Of a stretch of DNA of 64,000 nucleotides, positions 8,962-62,694 are shown in pieces. The DNA is from a virus. Taxonomy: Duplodnaviria > Caudoviricetes. Position numbers and translations under genes: made by a program. Every line of letters begins with the position of its first letter. Within the stretch, counting starts at the first letter, position 1. The notes below the pieces were generated by a model. The model ran no database searches. It worked only from the letters and a program-made list of their open reading frames with translations, and was not told the DNA's origin. Location: IMG/VR virus record IMGVR_UViG_3300025030_000042; one strand, given 5' to 3'.

Positions 8962-10042
8962 TGTTTATCCTTGATTTTAAAACTTGAATAATATCATTTT
9001 TTATTAATTTAAAAGATTTATCAAGTTTTAAAATTTTATTTATTAATTTTTCATTTTTATTATAATAATCATCTTTATAAATTATAATTTTAATTACCAA
9101 CCACGGATTGTATGTAGTATCGGAAGTAATTTGTATATTAAACTTATCTTGTTTTTCAATAGTATAATATTTCGGTAATATTTCATCATTTATAATTTTT
9201 TCTATTTCTGAATATTCATTTTTTTTCTGTTTATCGAATTCATCTATACTTATTGAAGTACCTGTTGAAATTTCTATAATATCCTTATCAAACGTCATGT
9301 TAAAAACTGATAATTTGTCTGAAATATTTAATAAATTTGATTCTAAATCCAATTCTTCTTTTTCATAAGGATTCTCAAAAACTTCTATTATTTCTATTTT
9401 ATCTTTTCCAAAAAAAACTGCTTGAGCTGGTTCATTATCGTGAATAATACTTTCTCCATAATCAACCATTCCATCGATATTCAAATTTCTTAAAATATAT
9501 GTCCAGATTTTAGGATTTTCATTAGCAATCATTCTAGTAATATTCCAAAAATAACCATCATAGGTTTGTACTTTAGCATCTTTTTTCCATTGTTCAATAT
9601 ATTTTTCAAAATTTTTGTTTTTATCTTTGTATTTATCAAATATTGGATTTATTTTAATATTATTTAATAATTGTTCATAATATTTTTCGTTATCTTGTAT
9701 TGAAAAATGAACAACAGCATTTAGATTTTTAGATTTAAATAAAATAACATACTTTCTATCACTAGCAAACGGAAGAGATTCATTTTCATATTTATTTAAA
9801 ATATCTTCTATTAATGGATAAGAATATATTCCAATTGGTGTATTATATTTACTTTTAGGATTTATACCCAATTTATTTATGTCTGAAAACTGAATAAAAT
9901 ATTGTGCCGGTATATTAATATATTTTTTAAGAATATCAAAAATATTTGAATTTTCCTTATTCATTTTTTTATATTTGGCAAGTTCGTCAAGTTTTTGTTC
10001 ATCAACAAACCGTCGCCAGTTTTCAAAAAGTTTATTAAACAT
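8951..10042 (-). CDS. Hypothetical protein with possible ADP-ribosyltransferase-like fold; paralog of 4583..5581
   Basis: KLGINPKSKYNTPIGIYSYPL, FWNITRM, NIDGMVDYG..IHDNEPAQAVFF; N-terminus MFNKLFENWRRFVDEQKLDE; TAATG coupling to the terminase stop. Confidence 0.55.
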   Translation of the reverse strand: MFNKLFENWRRFVDEQKLDELAKYKKMNKENSNIFDILKKYINIPAQYFIQFSDINKLGINPKSKYNTPIGIYSYPLIEDILNKYENESLPFASDRKYVILFKSKNLNAVVHFSIQDNEKYYEQLLNNIKINPIFDKYKDKNKNFEKYIEQWKKDAKVQTYDGYFWNITRMIANENPKIWTYILRNLNIDGMVDYGESIIHDNEPAQAVFFGKDKIEIIEVFENPYEKEELDLESNLLNISDKLSVFNMTFDKDIIEISTGTSISIDEFDKQKKNEYSEIEKIINDEILPKYYTIEKQDKFNIQITSDTTYNPWLVIKIIIYKDDYYNKNEKLINKILKLDKSFKLIKNDIIQVLKSRINNGK

Positions 10043-12846
10043 TATCCTTTATATATTCCCATATAATATCCCTGCTGAATCATTATATCTTGTTTAGTAG
10101 GTTTATATCCTTGTTGCCCCGGGATTCTTGTATCCAATGTCGATGTGCTAACGTGAATAGCATTCATAAATGCTTTTTTATATTCCACATCTTTTAATGA
10201 TGTCGCGAATACTTGATCCTTTATATAACAACCGATCGCGCACGCCATAATAAGATCGTCGTGACTATGGCGAGCCGCAGACGGTTTTGCGTTATTCCAA
10301 ATAAATGTTTTCAGTTCTTCATACATTCTTTTTGAATATAAATGTAGACTTCGCATTCTTATCATTTCTTCAAACTTCGCAATAATCAACGGTCTTGTTT
10401 TCGTTGTTGTAGAAAACCCTGGAACAGTATTTGACATTGATTCTGCCGCATATTGTTCAATAAACTCATTGCTTCCTTTTGTTGAATAATACATATTAGG
10501 ATATTCTAAATCTTCGATCAAGCGTTGAGTAACAAAGTATCCATTACTATTGATTTCGACCGCAATCATACATTCGCCATACTCTCTACCAGTCATATTT
10601 AACTGTTCGGAAAATAGATCGGGAGTTATTTTTCCTTTGTATTCCGCCACGATTTCCATTGTCTCAACTTTAAATACGTGAAACGCAGAAAAATCTTCGC
10701 CATCTCCACGAGCAACATCGGCAGAAATGAAATATGTCAATCCTGGTTGATAATCTTCCCAAACCCAAAGATTTCGATCGATGCCGGCGGTATATAAAGG
10801 ATCTTGAATGTGTTCAAAAACCTTTTTCATATCTTCTGGTGATATGACTGTATTGCCAGACATATTGAAGTTACAATTATGAACAATAAGATTTTCACAG
10901 ATATAAGAATTATCTTTCTCCACTTCAATATTATAAACACGAACACACTCTTCGGGACTTTCACTTTCAATATCAGAAATATTTGATATTAGCCCCCACC
11001 ACTTATCGTCATAAAATTTTGTTCTACATCCTTTCTTACTTTTAACGCCACTTTTAGTACACTCGTCTATTTTTTTTCCATCCACACTATTAAGTTCTAA
11101 AATCCAATTTGTTAAATGCTTTGGATTTTTTTTCAAATCAAATGAAACTCTGGTGTATAAATCAAATAAAGTCATTAATGTTCTAATTTGATAAATTAAT
11201 TTTTCGTTTACCAATCTTAAAACATTTTTTGTTTTAGGATTATGATATCCGTCTCCGAGCCAAACTCCATCGATCATACCCCTAATAAACTCAATATTCG
11301 TTTCAAAAATATTATTTTTAATAAGTTTGTTGTATGAATATCTTCCGGAAGTAAAAAGTTTTATTATTTCTATTAAAAATTTATTAGAAATATGAATCAC
11401 TGTACAATTAGAAGTTTCTCTTTCATAAAAGACACACCTAATCTCATATTTATTACAAAAACTTTTAACAAAATTTTTAAGTTCGTGTTCGTTTGAATGA
11501 AAAGCCAACTGAATACTATTTGGAGGATTGAGAATATTCCCTTCCGCTATATATAATCCCAAAAATTTACCAAGATCATAATCAACACTAATAAATCTTT
11601 TTGTATCTCCTTTTTGTCTAAAATATCTTGCTTTTATTTCTGTTTTATCAACACAGATATCAAACTCTGATATATCTATTTCTTTTATATTATTTTTAAA
11701 CACAGAGGAATTCAATTTCGGGAATAAACCATTTATGTATTGATTTATAACATATTGACCATATTTTTGTTCTAAATCATCTAAAGAATTCCAAGAAGTT
11801 TTAATATTTTTTGTTTCTAATAATTTCGAAAATACAGATGTGACAGTCAAAGAACCATCTACTTTTTTAATTTTTTCTAACGTTAAAATCGGATGATTTG
11901 TGGTTATTGATATATCGCTTTTTCTACACATAGGTACGCTAACTTTTTTAACTTTTTTAGAATTTTCTAAACGATTCATAGTTTTAGTTACACGCTGAAA
12001 TTTTCCAGTATGCGTTAAAACTAAATCTCCAACTTTTATATCTTCAATATATTTAAATCCATCATCTGTTATAATTTTCGTTCCACCTAAAACACATAAC
12101 AATTCTTGACCTATATCTCTCGACGTCATATTTTTTGTTTCTTTTTCATACCACGCCTGATCTCGATCGGGTCTTGAATCCCAAGGAAGTTCAACTAAAT
12201 GAAAATCATTTTCTCCAGATTTTGCTTCGGTACAGACTTTGTGAAAGAAGTTCCCTGCGCCGCAAGGCGTTGAAATCACTACACATTTTCCCTTTGTGGA
12301 CGATAGAGTGGGATATAAGGCTGCCCAGAGTTCTTCCATTCGTTCAATATGCGCCGCTTCGTCAATAACCAACAACGATAATGCTTCGGAACGACCCGCA
12401 TCCGGACTTGTCGTTGAAGCCTTTACCATTGAATCGTTTGTAAGATTAAAAGCGGATCTATTATTCACATCTGCTATTTTTGCTATTTGTTTTAACCAAT
12501 AAGGCAACTTTGTATACATATCTTTAGTTTTTCTAACAAACGCAGAAGCAACATTGTATTTTGTTGCTATAATAAGAACATTCTTTCCTTTATGAAAAAG
12601 AACCAACCAAAGAACATATGCTTGAGTTATTGTAGATATACCTAACTGTCGTGCCTTAAGAACAGCAGTAAAACGATAATCCATTAAATCTTTTATTAAA
12701 TCTTTTTGATACTGGAAGGTATTAAAGGGAACTAGCCCCTTTTTTTCATCATATATCCGAACATAGTTGGCAATAAAATAGTTCGGATCTTTTCCGCATT
12801 GTAATATTTCGTCGCGTATTTGTTGAGATGATAGTGTTGGTGGCAT
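10042..12846 (-). CDS. terL: Terminase large subunit (T4 gp17-like) containing an intein
   Basis: LKARQLGIST (Walker A region), LLVIDEAAHI (Walker B), VVISTPCG, nuclease ISADVARGDGEDFS and HDDLIMACAI. Confidence 0.95.
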   Translation of the reverse strand: MPPTLSSQQIRDEILQCGKDPNYFIANYVRIYDEKKGLVPFNTFQYQKDLIKDLMDYRFTAVLKARQLGISTITQAYVLWLVLFHKGKNVLIIATKYNVASAFVRKTKDMYTKLPYWLKQIAKIADVNNRSAFNLTNDSMVKASTTSPDAGRSEALSLLVIDEAAHIERMEELWAALYPTLSSTKGKCVVISTPCGAGNFFHKVCTEAKSGENDFHLVELPWDSRPDRDQAWYEKETKNMTSRDIGQELLCVLGGTKIITDDGFKYIEDIKVGDLVLTHTGKFQRVTKTMNRLENSKKVKKVSVPMCRKSDISITTNHPILTLEKIKKVDGSLTVTSVFSKLLETKNIKTSWNSLDDLEQKYGQYVINQYINGLFPKLNSSVFKNNIKEIDISEFDICVDKTEIKARYFRQKGDTKRFISVDYDLGKFLGLYIAEGNILNPPNSIQLAFHSNEHELKNFVKSFCNKYEIRCVFYERETSNCTVIHISNKFLIEIIKLFTSGRYSYNKLIKNNIFETNIEFIRGMIDGVWLGDGYHNPKTKNVLRLVNEKLIYQIRTLMTLFDLYTRVSFDLKKNPKHLTNWILELNSVDGKKIDECTKSGVKSKKGCRTKFYDDKWWGLISNISDIESESPEECVRVYNIEVEKDNSYICENLIVHNCNFNMSGNTVISPEDMKKVFEHIQDPLYTAGIDRNLWVWEDYQPGLTYFISADVARGDGEDFSAFHVFKVETMEIVAEYKGKITPDLFSEQLNMTGREYGECMIAVEINSNGYFVTQRLIEDLEYPNMYYSTKGSNEFIEQYAAESMSNTVPGFSTTTKTRPLIIAKFEEMIRMRSLHLYSKRMYEELKTFIWNNAKPSAARHSHDDLIMACAIGCYIKDQVFATSLKDVEYKKAFMNAIHVSTSTLDTRIPGQQGYKPTKQDIMIQQGYYMGIYKG
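10876..12096 (-). mobile_element. Intein (407 aa) with LAGLIDADG endonuclease inside terL
   Basis: Begins CVLGGTKIITDDG after GQELL and ends VYNIEVEKDNSYICENLIVHN before a +1 Cys; internal LGKFLGLYIAEGN and MIDGVWLGDG blocks. Confidence 0.92.
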
Positions 12847-13738: not shown

Positions 13739-14080
13739 TTATTCATTTCCTCTTTTCCAATCGTATTTTATTAAATAACACGAACGGCAACATTTATACT
13801 TTGTGAAATACAGATCATCTTCTACTAAAAATGAATATCTTTCACAAATAGGACAAGTCCTATCATCTTCTGTTGTAAATAGTTTATCATCAACCAAAAC
13901 TTCCTTTGATTTTCGTTGGTTTTCTTTGATACTAATCTGTTTTATCTGCTCTATATAATCTTTTTCTTTATTATCGTCCCAGTTACTTAACGGATGTTGA
14001 GTCGCCTCTTTTCCGTATTTTTCTTCTATTGCCTTTTCAAGTTTTATGAGATAGTTAGGGTCTTTTTCTTGTTTTTTCAT
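13739..14080 (-). CDS. Hypothetical Zn-binding protein
   Basis: Likely start MKKQEKDPNY at 14080 (ATGA overlap with the upstream stop); CPIC...CCRSC motif. Confidence 0.6.
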   Translation of the reverse strand: MKKQEKDPNYLIKLEKAIEEKYGKEATQHPLSNWDDNKEKDYIEQIKQISIKENQRKSKEVLVDDKLFTTEDDRTCPICERYSFLVEDDLYFTKYKCCRSCYLIKYDWKRGNE

Positions 14081-14511
14081 TTTATTCTTGATACCGCAAA
14101 AAATGTTCCCAGTGACAATAGGATGCCTCCAGCAACTCCCAGAGACATCCACAAAATACTGTTACTATTGGGGTTTTTTGAAGCAATCTCTCTCAATCTA
14201 TTTATCTCGTCATTTTTAATCTTTGTAATCTCTTCAAGTTTTCTCTGGGATATAGATAGATCTATTTTTGTTTTGCCGTTTTCAAGTTCGCATTCGGATT
14301 TCTGTCGCATTGTCAAATAATCTATTTCCAGTTTACATTTCTTTTCTTGATTGTTTTTGTCGGTGATTATTGAAGCTACTGCTTCGTCATCCATTAAACT
14401 TCCATCAAATATTGCCATTTCACCTTTCTTTATTCTTACCACTCTTCCTTCAGCAAACACGGACACTGGAAATATAAATATCAGTAATGTCGCAATAACT
14501 TTATTAAACAC
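14077..14511 (-). CDS. Secreted, membrane-anchored coiled-coil protein (spanin-like partner)
   Basis: Signal peptide MFNKVIATLLIFIFPVSVFA-EG with no lipobox Cys, a coiled coil, and a C-terminal hydrophobic ILWMSLGVAGGILLSLGTFFAV. Confidence 0.5.
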   Translation of the reverse strand: MFNKVIATLLIFIFPVSVFAEGRVVRIKKGEMAIFDGSLMDDEAVASIITDKNNQEKKCKLEIDYLTMRQKSECELENGKTKIDLSISQRKLEEITKIKNDEINRLREIASKNPNSNSILWMSLGVAGGILLSLGTFFAVSRIK

Positions 14512-14524
14512 TTAAAACTCCTAT

Positions 14525-14890
14525 CTATCCCCATTCTAATCCAAATTCTTTCGCTAAGATTTTCGTCAGTTCCTCGGGGTTGTTTTTATATTCATATAAC
14601 AATAACTTTATATCATTTTTCTTATCATTGTCAAGTTTTGTTTTATCGTTTTGATACTTTTTTTCAAGTTCCTGAATGACCACTTTATATGTCTCTTCAA
14701 GTTTTTTCTTTTCTTGTTCCCCTTGCTGATTTAACTTATCAATGACTTCCTTTTCTTTTTTATAACTTTCGATCGCCTTTTTTAATATTTCCATCGCCGG
14801 ATTATTTCCAGATCTATACAAAATCGCTAATAACACGATTAGCACCAGAATAATCGGAACATACCAAAACTTCTTTATTATCAACCACAT
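14525..14890 (-). CDS. Putative i-spanin (Rz-like)
   Basis: N-terminal TM WYVPIILVLIVLLAILY followed by a long Lys/Glu coiled coil; directly after the holin. Confidence 0.55.
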   Translation of the reverse strand: MWLIIKKFWYVPIILVLIVLLAILYRSGNNPAMEILKKAIESYKKEKEVIDKLNQQGEQEKKKLEETYKVVIQELEKKYQNDKTKLDNDKKNDIKLLLYEYKNNPEELTKILAKEFGLEWG

Positions 14891-14894
14891 TATT

Positions 14895-15143
14895 TTATTC
14901 CCCCTCTGGATTTGGTTCTTTTGAAGGTTCTTCTTGTTTTAAGGAGGATTTCTTTTGGTAAACATTCGTTCCTAAATAAAAACTTGTAATGATCGAAATC
15001 AGTGTTACGAATGAACCATCTGTAAGAATAGTCTTGCTGAAAATAATCGGTGGGATAACCAAGGCTAACCAAGAAAGAACAATAACAAAAAGCGATAACC
15101 TTAACTTTCTATTTCTACTCCAATCTAAGATGATTTTAAACAT
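14895..15143 (-). CDS. Putative holin
   Basis: 82 aa, basic N-terminus, two TM segments (LSLFVIVLSWLALVIPPII; FVTLISIITSFYLG), charged C-terminal tail. Confidence 0.65.
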   Translation of the reverse strand: MFKIILDWSRNRKLRLSLFVIVLSWLALVIPPIIFSKTILTDGSFVTLISIITSFYLGTNVYQKKSSLKQEEPSKEPNPEGE

Positions 15144-15179
15144 AAAAACCCTCCAATGACAGTAAATAGTATTGGAGGG
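15144..15179 (-). terminator. Hairpin plus U-tract that sequesters the holin SD and carries the late promoter in its loop
   Basis: Coding strand CCCTCCAAT-actatttactgtc-ATTGGAGGG-TTTTT-ATG: perfect 9-bp stem (15149-15157 / 15171-15179), with GGAGG in the 3' arm. Confidence 0.75.
15163..15170 (-). promoter_or_regulatory. Putative late promoter ACTATTTA in the hairpin loop
   Basis: Exact motif; the 6th downstream base (A, 15157) is the first base of the 3' arm. Confidence 0.7.
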
Positions 15180-15218
15180 CCAGATTAAACTTTATTAACC
15201 TTTCAGATATTATGTGCT

Positions 15219-16415
15219 TTATTCCATTACGCTCCATCCTCGATAATCGTGAACCGCTTGACCTAAAAACACAGAGTTTGAACCAGTTCTAAAATTGCTT
15301 GCTATACTTGCGTGCTGAGTTGCCATAGCAGATTTTGTAGAGCCATAATAAGTTATATTTGCTGGCGCAACATCTAAAGTTTCTGAAGCAGCAAATAGTT
15401 GTTTATTAGATCCGCTCGCATAATCATACCACGCTTGAAATTGGGATATTTGCGTTGCCGAATCATCGGCATATGTCGCAACAACAACAAAATCAGATAC
15501 ATCGATTAAATGTGCTCCATCTTGTTTGCTATTACCATTATATGTTATAGAGTTTCTTGTTTCAGTATTATCTTTCAAACTTCTAGCAGCAAAACAACTT
15601 ACTTTAAATCCCGGACCACAAACTCTTCGAGTTGCATTGATTAAATCGCACAAACCTGGCAAATGACTTCCAGATGGGGTTGTTTCATCATTTACCCAAT
15701 ATTCAACATCGAAATGAAGACCATCGAATCGTTCACTTATATATCTCGCTTGAGCATTAAAATCAGCGAGAGGACGAATAACATTTGTCATAACCCAATG
15801 TTGATTTCTTCCCCAATCGACATCTCCAGCCATTGCGTGAACTTGAATACCTGAACGATGAGCAACATCAACAAACTGTCTTATAGTTTCAGCATTATTG
15901 TTATTCCAATTATCTCCACCGAGATAACTATAAATGTCCAAAAATATTAAATTTACATAGTTATTTCTACAAAAATTAAGAAGCGTTTGACGCTTGGATA
16001 ATGTTTCCATAGGATCATTAGGAGTAGAATACAACCAAACATACATTCCCCTATATACAGTACTATCTGGCGGAACTGGCTTATTCGATAGTCTTTCTAA
16101 TGGCGTATGTATTTCAAATGATCCAGAAACTATATGAGATCCGGAAATAAATATTGAACCGGTTATCTGATGTTGATCGGAATCAGAAGATCCTAATTGA
16201 GCAGCATTTGTAGAATATAAATTTATTACTTGCGCTGACCCAGAAACAGATAATATCTTTGAAACAGTTACATTTCCAGAAGATTCGAGAGATGAAACTT
16301 GAGTAGAACCAGTAACCGAAAGTGTATTTCTTATAGTTACAGTTCCGGAAAAAGTTGGTCCCGTGCTACTTTGAATATTTTGTTTTGCGTTAAAATTCCT
16401 TATTTTATTTATCAT
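15219..16415 (-). CDS. Tail-fibre-like N-terminus fused to a putative TIM-barrel glycoside hydrolase
   Basis: N-terminal TLSVTGS / ITGSIFISGS repeats; C-terminal RGMYVWLY...GIQVHAMAGD...FDGLHFDVEYW pattern typical of (beta/alpha)8 glycosidases. Confidence 0.6.
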   Translation of the reverse strand: MINKIRNFNAKQNIQSSTGPTFSGTVTIRNTLSVTGSTQVSSLESSGNVTVSKILSVSGSAQVINLYSTNAAQLGSSDSDQHQITGSIFISGSHIVSGSFEIHTPLERLSNKPVPPDSTVYRGMYVWLYSTPNDPMETLSKRQTLLNFCRNNYVNLIFLDIYSYLGGDNWNNNNAETIRQFVDVAHRSGIQVHAMAGDVDWGRNQHWVMTNVIRPLADFNAQARYISERFDGLHFDVEYWVNDETTPSGSHLPGLCDLINATRRVCGPGFKVSCFAARSLKDNTETRNSITYNGNSKQDGAHLIDVSDFVVVATYADDSATQISQFQAWYDYASGSNKQLFAASETLDVAPANITYYGSTKSAMATQHASIASNFRTGSNSVFLGQAVHDYRGWSVME

Positions 16416-16420
16416 ACAAA

Positions 16421-16428
16421 TAAATAGT
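16421..16428 (-). promoter_or_regulatory. Putative late promoter ACTATTTA (leaderless ATG)
   Basis: ACTATTTA-TTTGT-ATG: the 6th base is the A of the start codon; no SD. Confidence 0.65.
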
Positions 16429-16430
16429 AT

Positions 16431-19400
16431 TTACACTTCTATATGAGCATATCCATTTCTTTTTTCTATTACAATCTGCTGATCCACACAATCCTTTAAA
16501 TATTCAAGATGACTTATTAAAATAATCGTATCAAACTCCGTCTTCAACATTTCCAATATTCTCGTAAATCCCTCAAGATGTTCTTCATCTAACTCACTGG
16601 CAGGCTCATCGAGAATCAATATGTTTGATGTCGGTAATGTCGTTACCTTCATCAACGCCAATCGTATAGCAAAAGCAGATAAAGATTTTTCCGAACCGGA
16701 ACCAGTATCAAGTGTTCTCGCTTCGTGTTTTGGGTGTTTCAAATATATTTCAAGTTTATCATCGCGATTATCAAAATACACCTGGAAGTTTACTATAGAA
16801 GATAAAATCTTATTTATTTCTTCATTGACGACCGGCAGTTTTCTTTTAATAATATCGTAAGATATACCGTTTGAATGAAAACATTTTAAGAATAAATCCA
16901 TTGCTTCATATTGTTCTCGCAAAGTTTGTCGTTCTTCGCTTTGATTTTTTAGATCCTCCAGTTTTTGTTCCAACGAACCATTGATCTTTACCATATTATA
17001 TATTTGATTTTCACACTCTGCGATCTTTGATGATATTTCTTTTTTTATTTTCTGCTTTTCATTTTTTTGTTCAATGGTTGTTTTTATTTCTTCTATTTTT
17101 TCTTTATTTTCCCGCCATTTTTGTTCTTCCAACTTCAGGTTTACTATTTCTTGTTCTATCTTTAGCACTTCAATATTATTTTTTTGGATTTGTAGTTCAT
17201 TTTGAAGTATTGATGAGGAAATGGAAGACTTTCTTTCTACAAGTTTATTATATTTTTGAATAAAATCATTTATTTTTTCTGGGTTTAATACTTCTATTGA
17301 GTTTTTGACGGCATCTACTTTTTCTTGTAACTCGTTTAATGATTGTTGTAACTTTTGTATATTATTTGACGCCAAATGTGCGTCTTTTATAAATTTACAA
17401 GTTGGATATTCACTTCCACAGGGAACTTCTTTTAAGAGTTCCTTTTTCTTTTCGTTTTGATTTATTTTTCTATCTATATCTTTAATATCATATGATATTT
17501 GTTCTATTTCTTTTTCTTTTTCCGAGATTTCTTTTTTCTTATTTTTATATTCTTCAATATCAAAAATCTCTGAAATAAACTTCTCTATTTTTTTAATCTG
17601 TTCTTTGTCCGACAACAGAATATTTTCTCTTCTTTCATTTTCTTCTTTAAGAACCAGTAAATCTTTTTCTTTCTTTTGAAGATTTTTTAATATTTGTTCA
17701 ATATCAATAATCAAGTTGCGTGGAGAGGTGTTGATTTTATTGTCAAGTTCACTTATTTCTTTATTTATTATTTCAAACTGTGTTTTATATTCGTGACACA
17801 ATAACTTTTGTTTTTTAATATTAGAAGATGCCTGACCAATATCCCCTTGAGTTTTTATTATTATATTTTTTAAATCTTTTTCTTCTAATCTTTTTAAAGC
17901 CATGCGAACTTCGGAACTTTCTTCTTTTGCTAACTTAAACTTTTGATCAAATACCTCAAGATCAAGAAACTTTGCCAATATTTCCTTTCTTTTCGTTGAT
18001 CCTTCATTGATAAAAGTCAAAGCGCCAAACTGATCCGTCATAGAGGTGATAAGAAAATCTTCTATTGTTCCGATTGTATTTCTTATATTTTTATCAGTAT
18101 CATTTCTTGTAATACCGTTAATTTGTTCTATTTTATTATTATATATTTTTTCAAAAATAACATCAGTTTTTGCTTCTAAAGTTTCCTCTCCCTTTAACTT
18201 TTTCAAATATTTTTCAGATTTTCTGGTCACTATATACTTCTCTTCGTCAATCTCAAACTCTACTGTTCCGGTGCCCCATTCTTTATTTTGATTTATTATA
18301 GAAAGATTTTTTCGTATTCCTTTAGTTGAGGTATTAAAAAGTGTGTAGATGAGAGCTAAAACCAAACTACTTTTCCCAAAAAAATTGGGGCCGAAGACCC
18401 CAGCGACCCCTTTTATTTTCTCAAAATCTATTTTATTTCCTTCATCATAGTTATAAAGATTATCCCAAGACAAAGATTTTAACTTCCACTTCACATTTCG
18501 CATAATATCTTCATCTTGAACTAAAACAGAGTTATATTTTTTATTTAACTCAAATATTCTATTCAATATCTCTTTTTTAAGGTTATAATCCTTTAAATAT
18601 TCTTTGATCAGTTTTTCTTGAACAGTAACATCGCGAAGGTTTTCTGAAAATAGTTTCGTGTGTTGCTCCGAAATATTTCCCTTATTTGTTGCTCTACTTA
18701 AAAATGAAACATTTTCTGGAGAATATTGATACTTTGTTTGATCTATTACCCTTCGGATTGTTTCTATTGGTAGATTGTTTTCTGCTATCAAGCGGACACG
18801 AGCGTTTTTTAATATCGTTACATTGTCGGGTAACTTTCCTTCTTCAGTTAAATTGACAGAAATAAATGGTTTAGGGTTTGGGACAGAAATATGACAACAA
18901 GTAAAGACTTCTTTACTTTCTATTTCCCAAGTCAAGAAACCTTTACTATCTTCTTCGGAAAAGTTCTGTTGTATTGTTGAACCCACAAACCTTGCTTTGC
19001 CGTTATTATCTAATATTTGATTTGTTTTATGAATATCTCCGGCAAAAACATAATCAGCATTCTTAAAATCTTCTAATCCTATATCACCATTTGTTACTGT
19101 CCAACCAAGATCCGTAACTGCTCCATTAATCGTTCCGTGATATAAAAATATATTTATCTTTTCTGGATTTGATGGAATAAGTTTCCAGTTTTCCTTATCT
19201 AAAATAGATAAATGATTTAAGACAATATTGTTTCCGATATCTATTTCTTGCGAATACTTTAGATAATGAAGATTTGGGTGTTTTAGGAGATTTACAACTG
19301 GAGTTATACTATCAATACGATTTAACGATTTAAGCCCCAAATCGTGATTTCCTACGATTATATATGTTTTAGCGATATCGGCAAGATTTTTAAGAAAATC

Positions 19401-21113: not shown

Positions 21114-21141
21114 AGAATATCACAAAAGCGAAAAATGTCAA
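21114..21141 (-). promoter_or_regulatory. Putative sigma70-type early promoter for the primase/Mre11-Rad50 islet
   Basis: TTGACA (21141-21136), 16-bp spacer with TG-n, TATTCT (21119-21114), then 6 nt to the ATG at 21107. Confidence 0.55.
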
Positions 21142-22381: not shown

Positions 22382-23533
22382 TTAAAAAATGTCCGTCTTC
22401 AGTTTTATCAAATAGTCGTCCGCTTCTCGCTTGCGCAAAGGTCGTGCCAACTTGGCAATCGCAATCAAGTTTTTGTCGTCATCAAAAATACCAATCTTTG
22501 AAATATATGTAATCTTTTCATATGATCCAGTATATCCGGTCCAAGGAGATTTAACAATATTTTTTGCTTGTATATCTTCTCTTTCTCTATATGAAACGGA
22601 ACTTGTCAATGCCACTAAAGATCCCGATTGCGATCGATCAATAAATGTCGGGTTATTAGAAAAGTTAAGTTCTCCTTTTCTTGCGTGACAGTTCATTGTT
22701 ATGGTATTTACATAGTTAACACCTTCAAAAGATAAACTAAATGATGACGAGGGAGCACCATTGGTAAATCCAAAATAAGTCCACCGAGGAACAACAGAAC
22801 CACCACCAGTTGTATACACTTCGGTATGTTCCGTTGTCAAATCCCAGGTTCCAGTTAAAACCATAAATCCTTCGTTGTATAATACAACACCCGCAACAGA
22901 TCCAGATTGATTGCTTCCAGATGGTTCGGTTTGAACAAGTTCTCCATTTTGCCTTAAATCTTGGGCTCTGGAAATCATTGTTCCGGAAACATAAAACTTT
23001 AAATCTACGCTACCTTTTCTAATACTGGAACCATAAAATATACTGGGAATAGATATAAGTCCGATTTCTTGCGTTGATTTGTCTCCGAGACCGATTTCGG
23101 TGTTATAAGAATAATGCGGCGACCATTTAGAATAATAGTTTAAAGTATTTTTTAATGCCGTTATTCTTGCTCTTGAAGAGTTACTTGAATAAAACTCTTT
23201 TGATATTGATGCCGTCATTGGATATGATCCGGTAATCGTATCTCCATAAGAATAATCGGCGTGATATGAAGTTTTTGTTACCGCTTTTAAAGAATACGGA
23301 TCGGAACCTTTAACCACGAACGGATATATCATTGAAGTTGATAGACGATCAACATTTATTTCGTGAAGACTGATGCTTCCTTGTGGTGTGTGAGTTACAA
23401 TATTCGTAAAAGAACCGGACTCTTTAAAAATATTGTTATAATATATGTTTCGATCATATATTATAAAGTCTGCGCGCGGATAGGTTTTGATGCGGGAATA
23501 TAGAAGATCACCTTCTTTGAACTTATAAAACAT
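22382..23533 (-). CDS. Baseplate/tail structural protein with a tail-collar-fibre-like C-terminal domain
   Basis: NFSNNPTF...YISKIGIFDDDKNLIAIAKLARPLRK, paralogous to the C-terminus of 26962..28035. Confidence 0.7.
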   Translation of the reverse strand: MFYKFKEGDLLYSRIKTYPRADFIIYDRNIYYNNIFKESGSFTNIVTHTPQGSISLHEINVDRLSTSMIYPFVVKGSDPYSLKAVTKTSYHADYSYGDTITGSYPMTASISKEFYSSNSSRARITALKNTLNYYSKWSPHYSYNTEIGLGDKSTQEIGLISIPSIFYGSSIRKGSVDLKFYVSGTMISRAQDLRQNGELVQTEPSGSNQSGSVAGVVLYNEGFMVLTGTWDLTTEHTEVYTTGGGSVVPRWTYFGFTNGAPSSSFSLSFEGVNYVNTITMNCHARKGELNFSNNPTFIDRSQSGSLVALTSSVSYREREDIQAKNIVKSPWTGYTGSYEKITYISKIGIFDDDKNLIAIAKLARPLRKREADDYLIKLKTDIF

Positions 23534-23546
23534 TCATAGTAAATAG
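23520..23546. repeat. 27-bp direct repeat, copy 1 (late motif plus first codons MFYKF of 22382..23533)
   Basis: aacttataaaacattcatagtaaatag matches 26802..26828 at 26 of 27 bases. Confidence 0.85.
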
Positions 23547-26801: not shown

Positions 26802-26828
26802 AACTTATAGAACATTCATAGTAAATAG
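26802..26828. repeat. 27-bp direct repeat, copy 2 (orphan promoter plus mini-ORF MFYKFNNQ*)
   Basis: aacttatagaacattcatagtaaatag; the ATG at 26815 reads MFYKFNNQ-stop (26789), compared with MFYKFKEG in the intact gene. Confidence 0.85.
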
Positions 26829-48927: not shown

Positions 48928-48935
48928 TAAATACT
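48928..48935 (-). promoter_or_regulatory. Putative late promoter, variant AGTATTTA
   Basis: AGTATTTA-CTGTA-G-CA-ATG upstream of the giant gene; no SD. Confidence 0.55.
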
Positions 48936-61974: not shown

Positions 61975-62694
61975 CTAAATATCACCATTATTCCAATCTT
62001 GTCTAAAATCAATGTAACATATTTTAAGTTTCTTTAAAACTTGGACTATTTGTTTGGTGTTTAAATCGGTAAGTTCTCTAATATTAAAGTATATTGCCTT
62101 TTTATTAAAAATCTCTATTTTATCGGCATTTTCATAGAGATAGTTTATAGCCCACAAAACTTTTCCTTCTGTAGTAGAAGAATCATATTCATATTTCCAA
62201 TCCTCCATCTCTTTTAAAAAGAAATTATTAAATTCCGACTTTTCTCTCTTTCTATTGTAGGGATTTTCAACCGAAAAAAAAGCATTTTGATCTTCTATGG
62301 AAAGATTTTCATAACTAACTTCCTCTTTCATTCTTTTACTTTTCTTCTTTGTTTGTTGAATGAAAAAGTTTTTACTTATTACTGAAAAATACGAAAACGC
62401 CTTATATCCTCTTTTAACATCAAATTTATTTAATATTGTTACGAGAAAAACCTTACACTCTTGTTTTAAAATATCTATATTTGGAAGTTTATTAAATCTA
62501 TAAGTAAGAACAATCTTATCAACCATTTCGTTAAATGCCGGCGCTATAAGATCATTATAAAGAGATTCTCTGATGTCCCTTAAATCCGTCTTAACATAAT
62601 CCAAAATTGCTTCTTCGTGGACTTTCGTAAAATACAAATTCTTAGTTCTTTTTGCTCGTTTCCGAGTTATTTCTTCACACAAGAGAATCATCAT
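61975..62694 (-). CDS. Phage RNA polymerase sigma factor (candidate late, gp55-like)
   Basis: Region 2 motif LNKFDVKRGYKAFSYFSVISKNFFIQ; YFTKVHEEAILDY N-terminus; C-terminal HTH-like segment. Confidence 0.75.
   Translation of the reverse strand: MMILLCEEITRKRAKRTKNLYFTKVHEEAILDYVKTDLRDIRESLYNDLIAPAFNEMVDKIVLTYRFNKLPNIDILKQECKVFLVTILNKFDVKRGYKAFSYFSVISKNFFIQQTKKKSKRMKEEVSYENLSIEDQNAFFSVENPYNRKREKSEFNNFFLKEMEDWKYEYDSSTTEGKVLWAINYLYENADKIEIFNKKAIYFNIRELTDLNTKQIVQVLKKLKICYIDFRQDWNNGDI

Follow-up and report, generated by a model that had tools for sequence, protein, structure and literature searches.

The window, a 64-kb stretch of viral DNA, carries a hairpin that probably serves both as a T4-type translational lock, with the promoter inside the hairpin, and as an intrinsic terminator. 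The hairpin lies in the 75-nt gap between a 398-aa gene and an 82-aa open reading frame (ORF) and begins 40 nt past the stop codon of the former. Its parts, in the order in which an RNA would contain them, are listed below.

15171..15179, minus strand: 5' arm (anti-Shine-Dalgarno), CCCTCCAAT, read from the window letters
15158..15170, minus strand: 13-nt loop, ACTATTTACTGTC, read from the window letters
15163-15170, minus strand: candidate late-promoter word ACTATTTA in the loop, from motif statistics in the window and in relatives
15149..15157, minus strand: 3' arm, ATTGGAGGG, which pairs with CCCTCCAAT
15150-15154, minus strand: Shine-Dalgarno (SD) sequence GGAGG inside the 3' arm
15144..15148, minus strand: U5 tract abutting the stem, both the SD-AUG spacer and a likely terminator tail

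The ATG of the 82-aa ORF follows at 15143, immediately 3' of the U5 tract. The hairpin had been described, with the same letters and coordinates, in an earlier reading made without database searches (the sequence-only reading), and the minus-strand window sequence agrees with that description exactly. The stem consists of nine perfect base pairs; G15180 and G15181 can extend it by G.U pairs with U15148 and U15147, and with two inner pairs added it reaches up to 13 pairs. Folding of the hairpin alone gave about -17 kcal/mol. A 106-nt context folded at -24.8 kcal/mol (z = -2.5), a value equalled by 2 of 200 shuffles, and the pairing energy between the 5' side and the region downstream of the predicted transcription start was matched in none of 200 shuffles of the 5' side. 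The 64-kb window contains 54 perfect hairpins with a stem of at least 8 bp; the one at 15149-15179 is the only intergenic one and, with G-C pairs at five of nine positions, has the highest G-C share among them. A search of 14500-15800 against Rfam returned no family.

The accessibility of the SD was computed for RNAs with different 5' ends. In upstream-initiated RNAs of 180 and 360 nt, the thermodynamic prediction put the probability that the SD is unpaired at ~0. In an RNA starting at 15157 the probability was 0.2-0.75 (starts at 15156-15160 were computed), and the SD is thus only partly open in the short RNA. The idea that the hairpin buries the SD, put forward in the sequence-only reading, is borne out by these two sets of values.

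Origin of the window

Every gene of the window is encoded on the minus strand. Family searches identified T4-type genes for a gp21-type prohead protease (PF03420), a gp20-type portal and gp6/gp25-type baseplate proteins, together with matches for a primase, a fused Mre11-Rad50 and an intein-bearing terminase. The nearest isolates by portal protein, Flavobacterium phage vB_FspM_immuto and Microcystis phage Mel-JY01, are ~44% identical and are followed by thousands of T4-like records, and a DNA search with 7 kb around the site gave no match among deposited phage records. Because of the family matches, the portal relatives and the lack of a DNA-level match, the source is, as judged by sequence comparison, an uncultured, deep-branching T4-related myovirus without a DNA-level relative among deposited phages. 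The same proteins were found on groundwater contigs of up to 211 kb. IMG/VR searches with the 398-aa protein, the 82-aa protein and the portal gave no usable relatives, and the Mre11-Rad50 query gave one (L001), whose contig stops before the holin-like region.

Two further features of the window were recorded. The large terminase (934 aa, 10042-12846, minus strand) contains an intein with a Hint domain and an endonuclease-like insert, which is kept in L003-L006. Within the Mre11-Rad50 coding sequence, at 18386-18402 on the minus strand, there is a terminator-like hairpin with a 7-bp stem (5 G-C pairs), a UUCG loop and a following U7 run. It is located at the Walker A motif, near the nuclease/ATPase junction, and may be a coding coincidence or an internal attenuator.

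Genes around the hairpin

The gene behind the hairpin and its neighbours are as follows.

14895..15143, minus strand: 82-aa ORF, candidate holin, from hydrophobic segments and a charged tail
14525..14890, minus strand: 121-aa protein with an N-terminal anchor and a coiled coil, weakly Rz-type i-spanin-like (phrog_1327, E 1.3e-3)
14077..14511, minus strand: 144-aa protein with a signal-like N terminus and a C-terminal hydrophobic segment, third putative lysis-cassette gene
15219..16415, minus strand: 398-aa gene; residues 110-398 are a TIM-barrel glycoside-hydrolase-like domain in the predicted structure

Two hydrophobic segments, a strong and a weaker one, are present in the 82-aa protein, and 9 of its last 20 residues are charged. 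Its size, these segments and its neighbours are the grounds on which we infer that it is a holin. The sequence-only reading had used that name outright; the same three features speak for it, whereas searches of Pfam and PHROG gave no family match and the Atlas neighbours are unnamed viral proteins. A lysis cassette made up of the 82-, 121- and 144-aa genes is a reasonable reading. For the 398-aa protein, residues 110-398 gave a high-confidence TIM barrel model, with the C. difficile peptidoglycan hydrolase Cwp19, PgaB and GH18-type enzymes as the nearest solved folds. Because of this glycoside-hydrolase-like domain, the protein may be the cassette's missing endolysin or a depolymerase. Its N-terminal 100 residues are disordered or of low confidence and rich in S/T/G repeats, and its homologues are roughly 290 aa long and occur in varied contexts.

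The loop word as a candidate late promoter

Besides the copy in the loop, three features of the window bear on its transcription.

16421..16428, minus strand: ACTATTTA copy 5 nt before the ATG of the 398-aa gene, late-type and apparently leaderless, by motif match
21114..21141, minus strand: sigma-70-type consensus match TTGACA-16-TATTCT with TG, ahead of primase and Mre11-Rad50, by consensus only
61975..62694, minus strand: 239-aa sigma-like protein, candidate reader of CTATTTA, by its phrog_234 match

CTATTTA occurs 18 times on the coding strand of the window, and nine of these copies are intergenic, though intergenic DNA makes up 2.2% of the window. Four copies are on the opposite strand, and no intergenic one is among them. 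All ten intergenic copies on the coding strand (nine CTATTTA and a GTATTTA variant at 48934) have a purine six positions past the word. At the sites 16427, 61965 and 23546 this purine is the first base of the start codon or adjoins it, which suggests apparently leaderless mRNAs at several CTATTTA sites. The word precedes structural and lysis genes, namely those for the protease, the baseplate, a 3474-aa protein, tailspike-like proteins, the 398-aa glycosidase-like protein and the 82-aa ORF. A motif scan of the window found no intergenic late-type copy in the primase / endonuclease / Mre11-Rad50 block, and the sigma-70-type match at 21114..21141 is a possible source of early read-through RNA. 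For the copy in the loop, counting six bases on from the word leads to A15157, with which the 3' arm begins, and by this six-base rule transcription would start there. A 27-nt direct repeat, 26/27 identical, was seen at 26802-26828 and 23520-23546 (minus strand); it holds the late-type word and first codons, and flanks a beta-helix gene and the two genes that follow it.

The 239-aa protein matched phrog_234, 'late sigma transcription factor', weakly (E 1.7e-3), aligned weakly to region 2 of RpoS (E 0.25) and had no match in Pfam. A copy of the motif lies within 10 nt after its gene. Its family is very large, with over 7,400 proteins of about 50% identity or more in marine and freshwater metagenomes, on contigs of up to 190 kb; JGI names several of these homologues a specialised sigma subunit. 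The nearest isolates, Flavobacterium phage immuto and Microcystis phage Mel-JY01, are only ~30% identical. We used the sigma-like protein to fetch 80 IMG/VR loci (L021-L100) as relatives. The 8-mers with the strongest enrichment ahead of gene starts in these loci included CTAATTAT and CTATTTAT (41x and 10x, respectively), alongside SD words, and CTAATTA was as frequent as CTATTTA. The CTAWTTA word often stood directly after the sigma gene, its distance to the start codon peaked at 5 nt and at 15-25 nt, and the base at +6 was a purine in 42 of 53 motif sites. These comparisons give good support to the proposal that CTAWTTA is a single-element, T4-late-like promoter with a start six bases downstream. 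The loop word is most likely read by host RNA polymerase together with the phage's gp55-like sigma, the putative product of 61975-62694. That the word is promoter-like had been proposed in the sequence-only reading, and the statistics of the window and of relatives with the same sigma-like gene bear this out.

The loop word is nearly the reverse complement of the T4 late promoter TATAAATA, and for this reason its orientation was assigned from the direction of the genes and the statistics of spacing. We considered a plus-strand promoter with the T4-like reverse complement (nTAAATAG) and rejected it, because the genes all run on the minus strand and the enrichment and spacing statistics appear only in the sense orientation. 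A full-text literature search for CTATTTA as a late promoter found no phage paper.

Pairing in strain variants and at other loci

Twelve near-identical contigs (L002-L013) have an identical gap and for that reason give no covariation. Variation was found in two further contigs. L020 is from a strain with 37 differences from the window over 1.3 kb, and it keeps the motif copy at 16421..16428. In its 5' arm a C to T change places a U.G pair opposite a G of the SD (C-G to U.G), and at the base of the stem a G to A change turns a G.U pair into A-U; the tract that follows is U6. L014 has the arms AATCCTCCA and TGGAGGATT, in which the pair beside the SD core is changed on both sides, from C-G to U-A, and it again has CTATTTA in the loop, followed by U6 and ATG. 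Its allele of the 82-aa gene is 64% identical and lies directly after Mre11-Rad50, without the 398-aa gene. Positions 1-912 of L014 compared with 14595-16600 of the window form a mosaic: near-identity extends over the C terminus of Mre11-Rad50 and over the 121-aa gene, on either side of the divergent 82-aa gene. From this comparison, the holin-plus-hairpin module appears to be exchanged or fast-evolving.

Contigs from four DNA runs contained only the L014 and L020 variants again, no RNA run was listed among the public runs with the sequence, and scanning metagenomes with the alignment of the holin-like protein gave no match. In five distant homologues of the 82-aa protein (P0048-P0052, 37-51% identity) the gene directly adjoins or overlaps the one upstream and the hairpin is absent, so the device is tied to the gene arrangement of the lineage and not to the protein family.

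At all motif sites in the 80 relatives, pairing was scored between the sequence 5' of the word and the stretch that runs from the predicted start to the start codon. This score singled out three sites, those of the window, L014 and L057, the last of which precedes an HNH gene. A scan with CCTCCA, CTATTTA and TGGAGG spaced as in the hairpin returned 52 matches, most of which were set aside as chance or as ordinary terminators in unrelated DNA. Three more families, on unrelated metagenome contigs, show every element of the layout, and in each an ATG at the right distance opens a long ORF. In L143 and L144 the layout precedes a 330-aa GIY-YIG homing endonuclease beside phoH, in L146 it precedes an HNH endonuclease, and in L114 and L115, which differ from each other by a C-G to U.G change, it precedes a 98-aa ORF. 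This ORF (308-604 of L114, minus strand, and in L115) has a signal-like N terminus and a beta-rich remainder, and is on a contig with a phage dehydrogenase-like gene.

In 9/9 layout sequences the predicted start (the +6 purine) is on the descending side, past the SD-pairing 5' arm, and at or near the border of the SD-bearing 3' arm. Wherever the ORF is clear, 4-7 nt separate GGAGG from the start codon. The arm sequences vary between loci and always include the complement of the local SD. Pairing is kept through compensatory or wobble changes in L014, in L020 and in L115 relative to L114, a small sample with two variants within the lineage. Covariation in relatives had been named in the sequence-only reading as a check on the hairpin, and the double change of L014 and the wobble changes are of that kind.

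Other candidate sites were also inspected. The late-motif site at 26,8xx offers possible long-range anti-SD / SD pairing, but its fold (z -0.3) was no better than shuffles, and the one at 4,29x was weak (z -1.4); both were rejected as further locks. In L151 (IMGVR_UViG_2617271113_000004, 191 kb) the hairpin CCTCCAAT / ATTGGAGG at 570-600 on the minus strand has the T4 late promoter TATAAATA in its loop and lies 8 nt before the ATG of the gene after a 2058-aa protein. It was found only because its reverse complement fits the search pattern and, by its sequence, is a textbook T4-type lock in another large environmental phage.

The U tract as a likely terminator tail

A run of four to six U follows the stem in 8/9 layout sequences, the exception being L146. 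In the relatives, UUUU occurs in the spacer of 8/313 ordinary SD-led starts (2.6%). Judged by this comparison, the U-run is a selected part of the hairpin class, and its enrichment makes it likely that the hairpin also acts as a terminator. The window hairpin has the intrinsic-terminator features of a stem with 5/9 G-C pairs, an immediate U5 and a position 40 nt after a stop codon. Its loop of 13 nt (8 nt if two inner pairs and a bulge form) is long compared with the ~3-8 nt of intrinsic terminators, and a consensus terminator scan did not list the 15144-15179 site. The combination of terminator and translation lock envisaged in the sequence-only reading is supported, as a prediction, by the non-random U-run (8/9 vs 8/313).

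Proposed mechanism and alternative explanations

From these features we infer promoter activity, a start site, termination and a translational effect, which would act together as follows. RNA from upstream would come from the late-type promoter at 16421-16428, or from early transcripts through primase and Mre11-Rad50. Such read-through RNA would fold the stem of 9-13 bp, in which the GGAGG of the holin-like gene is paired with the anti-SD. Part of the upstream RNA would probably terminate at the U5 tract, and RNA reading past it would be unable to start translation of the holin-like gene. The loop word (A)CTATTTA would drive transcription from about six bases on, at A15157, and the resulting mRNA would be translatable, with its SD free because the 5' arm is absent.

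The sequence-only reading saw in this arrangement a timing switch between early and late expression. L014, where the hairpin comes after a recombination gene, fits that view. In the window, however, the gene upstream of the hairpin has a late-type motif of its own (16428-16421). If the 398-aa gene has, as it appears, its own late-type promoter, the hairpin must uncouple the holin-like gene from late read-through too. As read from its position, the window hairpin would be an insulator as much as a clock.

A simpler explanation is that the hairpin is a plain intrinsic terminator of the 398-aa gene (of Mre11-Rad50 in L014) with the promoter of the next operon beside it, and that masking of the SD has no regulatory weight. 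The SD would then overlap the stem only since GGAGG is convenient G+C-rich stem material in an A+T-rich genome. The G+C-rich stem, the direct U-run and the location 40 nt after the stop codon would all be expected of such a terminator, the U-run is strongly tied to the hairpin class, and this is the sole strong intergenic hairpin in the window. We nevertheless regard it as unlikely that termination is the whole function. L146 lacks the U-run yet retains the motif and the pairing of anti-SD with SD, GGAGG is constantly 4-7 nt from the start codon in the examples with a clear ORF, and a 13-nt loop is atypical of terminators. In T4, moreover, experiments showed that such masking lowers translation ~100-fold (PMC3014915).

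Two other explanations assign a different role to the loop word or to the arms. CTATTTA could be a signal at the RNA level, where an endoribonuclease cuts ~six bases downstream, frees the 3' arm, activates translation and produces apparently leaderless mRNAs. Strand specificity, intergenic location and a fixed distance to the start codon would be expected equally from an RNA signal. The site nevertheless has the format of a T4-type late promoter (a single A+T-rich word, no -35 element and a purine six bases on), a gp55-like sigma gene stands beside the first motif copy in the window and in many relatives, and no candidate nuclease was identified; RNA processing is, in our estimate, quite improbable. 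The inverted repeat could also be a DNA operator at which a dimeric regulator, bound to both arms, represses the promoter of the holin-like gene, in the manner of I-TevI at the late promoter of its own gene. Inverted repeats on either side of a -10 element are a typical operator design, and autorepression by I-TevI at a late promoter is documented (PMC2988022). Against this, the one-sided C to T changes in the 5' arm (L020; L115 vs L114) keep a U.G pair in the sense RNA and break the symmetry of the DNA. The arms also differ from locus to locus yet contain the local SD complement, as fits RNA pairing and not the specificity of one protein, and we consider the operator explanation very improbable indeed.

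Relation to known systems and significance

In phage T4, genes e, soc and 49 have a hairpin that sequesters the ribosome-binding site (RBS), and late promoters whose transcripts begin within that hairpin (McPheeters et al. 1986; reviewed in PMC3014915). A late promoter with an RBS-masking hairpin also precedes T4 I-TevI, I-TevII, I-TevIII and segB and mobE of Aeromonas phage Aeh1 (PMC2988022). The precedent cited in the sequence-only reading (e, soc, 49 and I-TevI) is as these two sources describe it. The mechanism class proposed for the window is textbook T4 biology. Like T4 gene e, the window has a putative lysis-related late gene downstream of presumed earlier transcription, an SD that is predicted here to be paired in long RNA, and a candidate single-element late promoter placed so that the late RNA would lack the 5' arm. 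The window phage also shares with T4 a gp21-type protease, a gp20-type portal and gp6/gp25-type baseplate proteins, and has a candidate gp55-like sigma. Unlike the hairpins of e, soc and 49, that of the window has the promoter word (A)CTATTTA in place of TATAAATA, with the whole word inside the 13-nt loop, is terminator-like by virtue of its U-run, and would guard a holin-like ORF rather than an endolysin. Its nearest candidate promoter upstream, in contrast to theirs, is itself late-type.

The endonuclease locks of T4 have a counterpart in environmental contigs, where, from sequence alone, CTATTTA-in-hairpin layouts precede GIY-YIG (L143, L144) and HNH (L146, L057) genes. The window gene differs from the T4 and Aeh1 cases in not being an endonuclease, and the promoter word and the phage lineage differ as well. 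Compared with the intrinsic terminators of T4 and E. coli, the window hairpin has the same G+C-rich stem, immediate U-run and place just past a stop codon, whereas its loop is 13 nt instead of ~4 nt and its stem, which encloses a candidate promoter word, also provides the SD and anti-SD. What is new in the window instance is the holin-like target, the statistically supported terminator tail and the two natural variants that keep the pairing.

We think there is nearly, though not quite, an even chance that a broader interpretation holds. According to it, a three-in-one module of terminator, lock and promoter would be present in a large uncultured aquatic T4-related clade, where it would guard genes that are costly if untimely, such as those for holins and homing endonucleases. 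Late transcription in the clade would be carried out by an undescribed pair, a gp55-like sigma of 230-245 aa and CTAWTTA, and the hairpins would mark its start to within a base or two. The layout offers an RNA-free way to orient and phase the candidate late promoter CTAWTTA, with a start six bases on, and this candidate is tied to a very abundant sigma family that has no cultured close relative. It may also flag the genes that such phages treat as dangerous if expressed early. If the proposed lock is real, lysis timing in an uncultured 211-kb groundwater phage would be guarded in the way that T4 guards the expression of lysozyme and homing endonucleases, and the promoter-in-hairpin lock would be an old device, widespread among T4-related phages and not peculiar to the T-even coliphages.
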